Below, piece by piece: positions 25,495 through 26,161 of a DNA stretch of 64,000 nucleotides (position 1 is the stretch's first letter; the number at the start of each line of letters is the position of its first letter). The stretch is from sequence record PP925844.1. One strand, given 5' to 3'. Both the position numbers and the translations under genes were made by a program. The notes under the pieces were generated by a model. That model ran no database searches. It was not told where the DNA came from and saw only the letters and a program-made list of their open reading frames with translations. The stretch is from Escherichia phage Elenatom.

Positions 25495-25712
25495 GTAACC
25501 TTTAAGCAGTATTCTTCTACATGCTGTTTACGACCTTTCTTATCAATAAAGGTATATTCAACGAATGTTCCAATGTAGTCTTTATCTACATCATGCGGAC
25601 TATTAATTGGACATTTAGTACGGCAAATGCGTTCCCATTGACGAATAATTACTGCTTTATTCTTTGGGTCATATGGATGTGGATAATGTATATTCATAAT
25701 AACGGTTCCCAA
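25485..25712 (-). CDS. Hypothetical protein
   Basis: 75-aa ORF. Confidence 0.45.
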   Translation of the reverse strand: MGTVIMNIHYPHPYDPKNKAVIIRQWERICRTKCPINSPHDVDKDYIGTFVEYTFIDKKGRKQHVEEYCLKVTWL

Positions 25713-26161
25713 TCAACAATCACAATTTCTAATTTAGAGGAATATGTATCTAAAATCCCCTCAATAATATCCCAGTTCCCTTTACCTATGCCTGCACCAA
25801 TCCTAGGCATATAGATTGTAGGTTTAATCAGTTTATTTTCACCAAACTCATTTAATTCTAACATACAATTCATTAAAGCGGAATACTCAAAATTTGGCCC
25901 TGATTGAAATTGAGTATAAAGGTTGAAGCAATACGCTTTATGAGTCCTAAAGTATTTTTCATAGACTGAGTAAGAACCGAGTTTAGTTACATCACCCCAT
26001 TCAGTCTGTAATTTATCAGCTTCCAAAATTTTAGGGAAAGCTTTGGTTAATTGACCCGCTACGCCTGAACCCATAGTATGAAAACAATTGCATCCATGCG
26101 CAATATTTTTACCTTCAGCGAAAAGGGCGACAATATCGCCCTTGATATATTTTACAATCAT
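25694..26161 (-). CDS. Macro-domain protein, TARG1/OARD1-like (putative ADP-ribose hydrolase)
   Basis: Motifs YIKGD, IAHGCNC, MGSGVAG and MPRIGAGIGKGNW align with human TARG1 motifs as remembered. Confidence 0.65.
   Translation of the reverse strand: MIVKYIKGDIVALFAEGKNIAHGCNCFHTMGSGVAGQLTKAFPKILEADKLQTEWGDVTKLGSYSVYEKYFRTHKAYCFNLYTQFQSGPNFEYSALMNCMLELNEFGENKLIKPTIYMPRIGAGIGKGNWDIIEGILDTYSSKLEIVIVDWEPLL

Follow-up and report, generated by a model that had tools for sequence, protein, structure and literature searches.

DarTG systems ADP-ribosylate phage DNA and thereby halt phage replication; the DarT2 toxin does so through ADP-ribose attached to thymidines in single-stranded DNA. The counter-measures of T-even phages are layered, with AdfA and AdfN directed against DarTG1 and Tk.4, or AdfM, directed against DarTG2. 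It was noted in 2024 that T4 without adfA and adfN was still resistant to DarTG2, and that another factor must therefore exist (PMC11257639). In a preprint of November 2025, tk.4 was the sole significant match in a HIDEN-SEQ transposon screen of T4 on a DarTG2 host, a clean tk.4 knockout was sensitive to DarTG2, a structural similarity to DarG of M. tuberculosis was described, and the gene was renamed adfM, for anti-DarT factor, macrodomain (bioRxiv 10.1101/2025.11.20.689424). The knockout result fills the gap left by the DarTG2 resistance of T4 lacking adfA and adfN. The match of tk.4 orthologues to the A1pp/macro domain had already been reported in 2006 (PMC1524935). Here, we describe the tk.4 gene of Escherichia phage Elenatom (PP925844.1), of which a stretch of 64,000 nucleotides, called the window in the following, was analyzed.

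Three further macrodomains provide the biochemical background. SCO6735 of Streptomyces coelicolor, which is devoid of the catalytic Lys and Asp, cleaves thymidine-linked ADP-ribose (dT-ADPr) from single-stranded DNA and protects cells from DarT (PMC9411070), and its activity was reconfirmed on synthetic substrates (PMC12879935). The Q85A variant of SCO6735 was inactive, as was Q85E according to that paper, N27S was nearly inactive, and G128E had reduced activity; in the proposed mechanism, Asn27 holds Gln85, which orients the distal ribose, and the reaction itself is carried out by an activated water (PMC9411070). Human TARG1 can cleave dT-ADPr DNA as well (PMC12879935). Lastly, gp104 of phage PhiKZ was able to clear DNA of DarT2 marks in vitro, its asparagine mutant N23A has reduced activity, and it was named AdfM in a Cell Reports paper of 2026 (PMC13309987).

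The tk.4 gene and its predicted macrodomain fold

The listing of open reading frames (ORFs) of the window contained one ORF with an ATG start and a product of 155 amino acids at exactly the following position, and its comparison with T4 revealed a single amino-acid difference:

25694..26161, minus strand: coding sequence of tk.4/adfM, encoding a stand-alone macrodomain protein of 155 amino acids, about 17.5 kDa and isoelectric point 5.9
25901..25903, minus strand: codon 87, TCA (Ser) as opposed to CCA (Pro) in T4 and Escherichia phage MLP2, from sequence comparison

The product was identical to T4 Tk.4 (AAD42667; T4 coordinates 60922-61389) in 154 of 155 residues, and tk, tk.1-3, vs, vs.1 and regB were present in the same order as in T4. 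This ORF represents the tk.4 orthologue in a T4-like Tequatrovirus, which answers the question, left unanswered in an original prediction made from the sequence, whether T4 has an orthologue. The gene, the macro domain and the anti-DarTG2 phenotype are all already published. Seven nucleotides within the gene differed from T4, six of them synonymous and one causing P87S, a pattern that would be expected under purifying selection. Residue 87 is part of the loop following strand 75-82 and is three positions downstream of Gln84. Conservation was quantified by column counts on a full alignment of 121 homologues, and position 87 was Pro in 84 of them and Ser in 2. The substitution may be a natural variant, a laboratory mutation or a sequencing error. 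No 100% match to the gene was found among the phage records listed, and all top matches had 99.8% identity. The closest phage over the surrounding 2.8 kb was MLP2 (99.9%), which differs inside tk.4 only at codon 87. The gene was matched in 649 phage records using megablast, 378 of which contain at least 80% of it, and a tblastn search retrieved a homologue in 2,754 of 50,697 phage records (about 5%), comprising T4-like and other large myovirus-sized genomes.

The original prediction had assigned the protein to the TARG1/OARD1 macrodomain family on the basis of three motif blocks. All three are indeed present in the translation, YIKGD at residues 5-9, IAHGCNC...MGSGVAG at residues 20-36, and MPRIGAGIGKGNW at residues 118-130, and a macro domain was recovered, well beyond what chance would give, with Pfam, PHROG, PDB, AlphaFold2 and Foldseek. 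The Pfam Macro family (PF01661) matched residues 22-132 with 27.9 bits (gathering cutoff 22; E 2.4e-6), and PHROG 335 matched with 1.9e-64. Matches to PDB sequences comprised BT1257 (7.5e-10), Poa1p, SCO6735, DarG and TARG1; a solved structure of Tk.4 itself was not found in the PDB sequence search. An AlphaFold2 model built from a 41-sequence alignment had a mean predicted local distance difference test score of 94.8 and a predicted template-modelling score of 0.90. The best Foldseek matches of this model in the PDB were TARG1, Poa1p, BT1257, the DarG proteins of T. aquaticus and M. tuberculosis, and SCO6735, with probabilities of 1.00 and template-modelling scores (TM-scores) of 0.7-0.8. There were 155 PDB matches at E <= 0.001, and the 50 listed comprised structures of macrodomains and designed hydrolases, some or all of the latter built on macrodomain scaffolds. 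The top matches were all macrodomains, which upholds the macro fold, and a three-layer alpha/beta macro fold can be predicted for Tk.4 with confidence.

The family profile was also compared with PDB sequences using HMMER. The E-values were 2.4e-17 for BT1257, 4.6e-15 for TARG1, 1.1e-14 for SCO6735, 4.9e-14 for Poa1p, and about 1e-12 to 2e-12 for DarG, whereas the Mac1 macrodomain of SARS-CoV-2 reached just 1e-3, such that MacroD-like viral macrodomains were about ten orders of magnitude behind. The Foldseek ranking of the relatives agreed with this ranking. Tk.4 belongs to the ALC1-like macrodomain class, which contains TARG1, DarG, Poa1p, SCO6735, BT1257 and ALC1, and not to the MacroD, PARG or macroH2A types. 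It is roughly equidistant from the characterised members of the class.

Catalytic positions and proposed mode of action

The residues of Tk.4 at the catalytic positions were determined with three alignments, one of the HMMER profile with PDB sequences and two MAFFT alignments with TARG1, the DarG proteins of T. aquaticus and M. tuberculosis, PhiKZ gp104, BT1257 and SCO6735. The DarG and SCO6735 sequences were taken from PDB alignments. The following codons are of importance:

25910..25912, minus strand: codon 84, Gln, at the position of the catalytic Lys and within the invariant N-x-Y-T-Q motif
26087..26089, minus strand: codon 25, Asn of the H-G-C-N-C motif, aligned with Asn27 of SCO6735, the conserved Asn of DarG, and Asn23 of PhiKZ AdfM
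25790..25798, minus strand: codons 122-124, G-A-G, in the phosphate-binding loop P-R-I-G-A-G-I-G-K-G-N-W

All three alignments agreed that Lys84 of TARG1, Lys80 of both DarG proteins (F-P-T-K) and Q85 of SCO6735 correspond to Gln84 of Tk.4 (N-L-Y-T-Q). This position was Gln in 120 of 121 homologues and Lys in none; the single exception was a chimeric fragment of 119 amino acids. Asp125 of TARG1, which activates Lys84, aligned with Gly126 of Tk.4, a position occupied by Ala in 90 and by Gly in 29 homologues. The conservation of the catalytic Lys and Asp of TARG1, which had been proposed as a check, was thus not found, and with Gln84 and Gly126 at these positions Tk.4 is not a TARG1- or DarG-type enzyme catalytically. 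Lys-type catalysis was ruled out by the three alignments together with the family-wide count. The original assignment therefore holds for the ALC1-like class that Tk.4 shares with TARG1 and DarG, but not for the type of catalysis.

By sequence, Tk.4 instead resembles the Gln-type branch of SCO6735 and BT1257. It retains the equivalents of the SCO6735 residues as His22, Asn25, Gln84, Gly122 and Gly124. Asn25 was kept in 120 of 121 homologues, and Gly122 and Gly124, which correspond to Gly126 and Gly128 of SCO6735, in 118 and 120, respectively. Gln84 and Asn25 would be spatially adjacent in Tk.4, by homology to SCO6735. Four residues, Asp49, Cys26, Gly33 and Ala35, were invariant in all 121 homologues. 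Asp49 is located at the end of helix 43-52 and is the only invariant acidic residue; an Asp is absent from this position in SCO6735, BT1257, TARG1 and DarG, whereas in a pairwise alignment it aligned with an Asp of Poa1p. Asp49 is a candidate for a branch-specific catalytic or structural residue.

The original prediction of a counter-measure to DarT has been borne out genetically for the 99%-identical T4 protein by the transposon screen and the knockout (bioRxiv 10.1101/2025.11.20.689424). We regard it as probable that this tk.4/adfM orthologue defeats host DarTG2, most likely by Gln-type hydrolysis of dT-ADPr. Tk.4 would bind ADP-ribose in the canonical macrodomain cleft with the H-G-C-N-C, M-G-S-G and P-R-I-G-A-G-I-G-K-G loops, and would hydrolyse the bond between thymine N3 and ribose C1'', such that ADP-ribose is released and normal DNA is restored. 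The catalytic lysine of DarG and TARG1 would not be used; as in the proposal for SCO6735, the Gln84/Asn25 pair would orient the distal ribose so that an activated water could attack it. The retention of Gln84, Asn25, Gly122 and Gly124, together with the SCO6735 precedent, makes this mechanism the most likely one, and the conservation of the N-x-Y-T-Q motif and of Gln84 and Asn25 was counted in its favor. By analogy, we infer that Tk.4 acts as an enzyme on dT-ADPr DNA and that Gln84 is essential for this activity.

Several points weigh against this view. Human ALC1 is an ADP-ribose binder and is not known to be a hydrolase, and it also has Gln at the position of Gln84 in the PDB alignment. Lys34 of SCO6735, which positions the DNA, is replaced by Ser32 in Tk.4 (Ala or Ser in the family), the mobile loop that carries Lys89 and Lys93 in SCO6735 is three to four residues shorter and devoid of Lys, and Tk.4 is mildly acidic, with its isoelectric point of 5.9. 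Furthermore, the protein of the window carries the rare P87S close to Gln84. Published biochemistry or enzymology of Tk.4 was not found in the literature searched. The enzymatic removal of ADP-ribose only "seems likely" according to the authors of the genetic study, which is a preprint and used special conditions (M9 glucose, 30 °C) (bioRxiv 10.1101/2025.11.20.689424). Lastly, the inactive Q85A variant of SCO6735 still inhibits DarT, so that protection could occur without hydrolysis (PMC9411070).

At least 399 bacterial relatives of Tk.4 with about 34-43% identity were found in a set with one genome per bacterial species, many of them on chromosomal contigs of megabase size, and 80 loci were fetched for analysis of neighborhoods and motifs. 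The N-x-Y-T-Q motif was present in about 76 of the 80. A DarT2-like gene was found within 5 kb in none of them (tblastn with P. aeruginosa DarT2, E <= 1, a single query of limited sensitivity). There was also no conserved neighbor family; the commonest one was shared by just 6 of the 80 loci, apparently as a matter of ordinary local synteny. The gene thus stands alone in bacteria and is not a toxin-antitoxin partner. Stand-alone chromosomal genes of the Tk.4 type are common in Rhodobacterales, Desulfobacterales, Verrucomicrobia, Bacteroidota and other groups. One apparent cellular homologue, on the 44 kb contig JBOFGC010000414.1 ("MAG: Bacilli bacterium"), was rejected as it is on a T4-like phage contig, with genes for Rnl1, a Dda-like helicase, PNK, dCMP deaminase, a T4 spanin domain and DNA ligase around the homologue.

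One alternative to hydrolysis is that Tk.4 protects by direct binding and inhibition of DarT2 or by shielding ADP-ribosylated DNA. The replacement of the catalytic Lys by Gln and the precedent of ALC1 would fit this explanation. So would the inhibition of DarT through interaction that was observed for each of the inactive variants SCO6735 Q85A, DarG K80A and TARG1 K84A, and that was strongest for SCO6735 (PMC9411070). However, the Gln, Asn and glycine-rich loops required for SCO6735 catalysis are almost invariant across the 121 homologues, stoichiometric inhibition would need to work on many divergent DarT2 proteins, and Tk.4, with its 155 amino acids and 30.4 bits to the NCBIfam DarG model (cutoff 250), is devoid of the C-terminal DarT-binding domain of DarG. 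The bacterial relatives stand alone with no DarT nearby and are therefore not co-evolved binders. We consider protection without hydrolysis unlikely.

Equally doubtful is a main substrate among the small ADP-ribose derivatives, i.e. ADP-ribose-1''-phosphate (Appr-1''-p), O-acetyl-ADP-ribose or an ADP-ribose-derived immune signal, with the DarTG2 phenotype as a secondary effect. The label of PHROG 335 is "phosphatase", and "phosphatase" or "Poa1p-like" can be found in several GenBank records; however, the "phosphatase" label, the likely source of which is Poa1p, derives from the old A1pp domain name and not from an assay. The H-x-C-N-C motif is common to Tk.4 and yeast Poa1p, as is the invariant Asp49 when the two are aligned pairwise, Poa1p was among the top fold matches, and a small-molecule substrate would fit the view of PMC9503650. 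Yet the only recorded phenotype is specific to DarTG2, a DNA ADP-ribosyltransferase, and activities on small molecules and on DNA are not mutually exclusive. To our knowledge, the Tpt1/KptA pathway that produces Appr-1''-p is not a T4 pathway.

Very improbable, lastly, is a reversal of protein or RNA ADP-ribosylation, be it of the marks of T4 Alt, ModA and ModB or of host marks such as the CmdT mRNA modification, and the reversal of protein ADP-ribosylation named in the original prediction found no support here. T4 encodes three ADP-ribosyltransferases, but Alt and Mod modify arginine, and we know of no macrodomain that cleaves this linkage. TARG1 and SCO6735 act on protein substrates too (PMC9411070), but no such phenotype was seen in the T4 screen (bioRxiv 10.1101/2025.11.20.689424), there was no sequence support, and CmdTAC reportedly defends robustly against T-even phages carrying tk.4 (PMC11618068).

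Gln-type hydrolysis of dT-ADPr by Tk.4 can be extended to a broader proposal, which we put forward tentatively and with somewhat less than even confidence. Tk.4 and its relatives would form a separate, widespread, Lys-less branch (H-G-C-N-C ... Asp49 ... N-x-Y-T-Q) with Gln-dependent, water-mediated cleavage of base-linked ADP-ribose, which was recruited against DarT2 independently of the DarG-derived "AdfM" of PhiKZ. If this is true, the bacterial copies without a DarT partner would be general DNA de-ADP-ribosylation repair enzymes, and the family-specific Asp49 might act as a general base that SCO6735 lacks.

Gene neighborhood and expression

The gene is part of a tightly packed run on the minus strand, comprising tk, tk.1, tk.2, tk.3, an extra DUF7202 ORF, tk.4, vs, vs.1 and regB, as identified with Pfam and the T4 record. 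Putative expression signals are the following:

26158..26161, minus strand: ATGA overlap of the vs stop codon (TGA) and the tk.4 start codon (ATG), read from the sequence
25694..25697, minus strand: ATGA overlap of the tk.4 stop codon (TGA) and the ATG of the DUF7202 ORF, read from the sequence
26168..26177, minus strand: purine-rich stretch GAGGATTGAG in the upstream sequence, ending 6 nt before the tk.4 ATG
27534..27562, minus strand: top sigma-70-like promoter match just upstream of regB, TTTACT-17-TATAAT with an upstream TG, 10/12, a consensus match only

The overlap of vs and tk.4 suggests translational coupling between the two genes. The stretch GAGGATTGAG is a likely ribosome-binding site of tk.4, and a ribosome_binding_site is annotated beneath the match in the old T4 record X04567. 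The promoter match at 27534..27562 is a candidate for the start of a transcript regB - vs.1 - vs - tk.4 - ... - tk, and no terminator-like site on the minus strand was found between it and tk in the terminator scan. However, 14 promoter-like sites were present in the region versus 16.5 expected from shuffles, and neither promoters nor terminators were enriched over shuffles; the transcription unit is therefore deduced from the gene packing, by which tk.4 is probably co-transcribed with regB, vs.1, vs and the genes down to tk. Early expression of tk.4 can be presumed.

The DUF7202 ORF (25485-25697, minus strand; MNIHYPHPYDPK...) encodes 70 amino acids and matches Pfam DUF7202 over its full length (1.6e-38). 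It separates tk.3 from tk.4 and is coupled to the latter by the ATGA start/stop overlap. It is present in phage MLP2 and relatives, whereas reference T4 has no gene there and tk.3 abuts tk.4. On the strand opposite to tk.4, within its codons 7-13, a perfect 8-bp hairpin was found at 26123-26143 (plus strand), consisting of AAGGGCGA-loop-TCGCCCTT followed by GATATATTTT, with a T-rich tail to 26153. GenBank records that annotate a terminator under tk.4 include DalCa and fPS-65. The hairpin could stop antisense (late, plus-strand) transcription, or it could be a folding element in the tk.4 mRNA near the start.

Two signal-peptide proteins had been predicted to follow the gene. The products of vs (26158-26499, minus strand) and vs.1 (26492-27037, minus strand) do have hydrophobic, signal-peptide-like N-termini, but both genes are upstream of tk.4 in the direction of transcription, i.e. 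at higher coordinates. Vs.1 contains an SLT domain (Pfam), and Vs ("valyl-tRNA synthetase modifier") had no Pfam match. A secretion-type leader is odd for Vs, given that it is described as a modifier of a cytoplasmic synthetase, and many GenBank records wrongly label vs "valyl-tRNA synthetase". In the HIDEN-SEQ preprint, no gene was depleted more strongly in minimal medium than vs (bioRxiv 10.1101/2025.11.20.689424).

Comparison with known macrodomains

The closest described system is T4 Tk.4 itself. It is the same gene, of equal length, likewise placed between tk.3 and vs, and with the same start and stop codon overlaps; the phage of the window differs by P87S and by the extra DUF7202 ORF between tk.3 and tk.4. 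The identification as adfM accounts for one accessory gene in a T4-like phage of the therapeutic type and adds no new system. The increment is mechanistic, in that the lysine chemistry of DarG and TARG1 is not available to the AdfM of T4, which is also unrelated to the AdfM of PhiKZ at the subfamily level. Given the precedent of SCO6735, the enzymology of a Lys-less Tk.4 macrodomain would be only modestly novel.

SCO6735 (PDB 5E3B) and BT1257 of Bacteroides (2FG1/2AFC), the latter being the best PDB sequence match of Tk.4, are likewise stand-alone proteins of about 150-160 amino acids, in which Gln replaces the catalytic Lys and both the Asn and the pair of loop glycines are conserved. They differ in that identities to Tk.4 are 21-28%, and the motifs are N-M-I-G-Q versus N-x-Y-T-Q and H-x-C-N-D versus H-G-C-N-C. 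Lys34, Lys89, Lys93 and the longer mobile loop of SCO6735 are absent from Tk.4, and the invariant Asp49 is specific to the Tk.4 family. Human TARG1/OARD1 (C6orf130; 4J5R) was the top Foldseek match (E 7.7e-10) and has a similar Y-(I/V)-K-G-D start and M-P-R-I-G-x-G loop, whereas its Lys84/Asp125 dyad is opposed to Gln84/Gly126 in Tk.4 (family consensus Ala at 126), at 20-24% identity. Yeast Poa1p (6LFQ-6LFU), an ADP-ribose-1''-phosphate phosphatase, has the H-x-C-N-C motif, an Asp at position 49 and the highest query TM-score of about 0.80. It differs by a length of 180 amino acids with an insertion, by its small-molecule substrate, and by F-T-S in place of Y-T-Q, such that a Ser appears opposite Gln84, as placed by eye on a partial sequence outside the multiple alignments.

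The DarG macrodomains of T. aquaticus (5M31/5M3E) and M. tuberculosis (5M3I) have the same fold (TM-score about 0.75-0.78) and target the DarT2 thymidine mark. However, both of them and PhiKZ gp104 contain F-P-T-K with the catalytic Lys, whereas Tk.4 contains L-Y-T-Q. DarG consists of two domains, a macro domain and a C-terminal DarT-binding domain, the latter of which is missing in Tk.4, and the NCBIfam model antitoxin_DarG (NF048014) matched Tk.4 only at profile positions 2-146 of 338. In addition, DarG is encoded beside DarT, whereas the neighbors of tk.4 are vs on one side and the DUF7202 ORF followed by tk.3 on the other.

PhiKZ gp104 is, like Tk.4, a phage-borne orphan macrodomain against DarTG2. 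It is DarG-like and of the Lys type, with 9.4e-25 to M. tuberculosis DarG and about 20% identity to Tk.4, and the PADLOC DarG model gave 133 bits for gp104 versus 36 bits for Tk.4. The idea that Tk.4 is an orphan DarG, as AdfN is for DarG1 and gp104 for DarG2, was rejected on the basis of the 30-36 bits of the DarG models and the low identity to gp104. The low identity and the Gln versus Lys type indicate that the T4 and PhiKZ anti-DarT2 macrodomains come from different branches of the class, and by sequence the two AdfM proteins would represent separate recruitments. The name AdfM was given independently to these two proteins, which differ by Gln versus Lys at the catalytic position, and this collision could mislead annotation transfer. 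Because one AdfM is of the Gln type and the other of the Lys type, enzymology, inhibitor design and naming should treat the two anti-DarT2 macrodomains separately.

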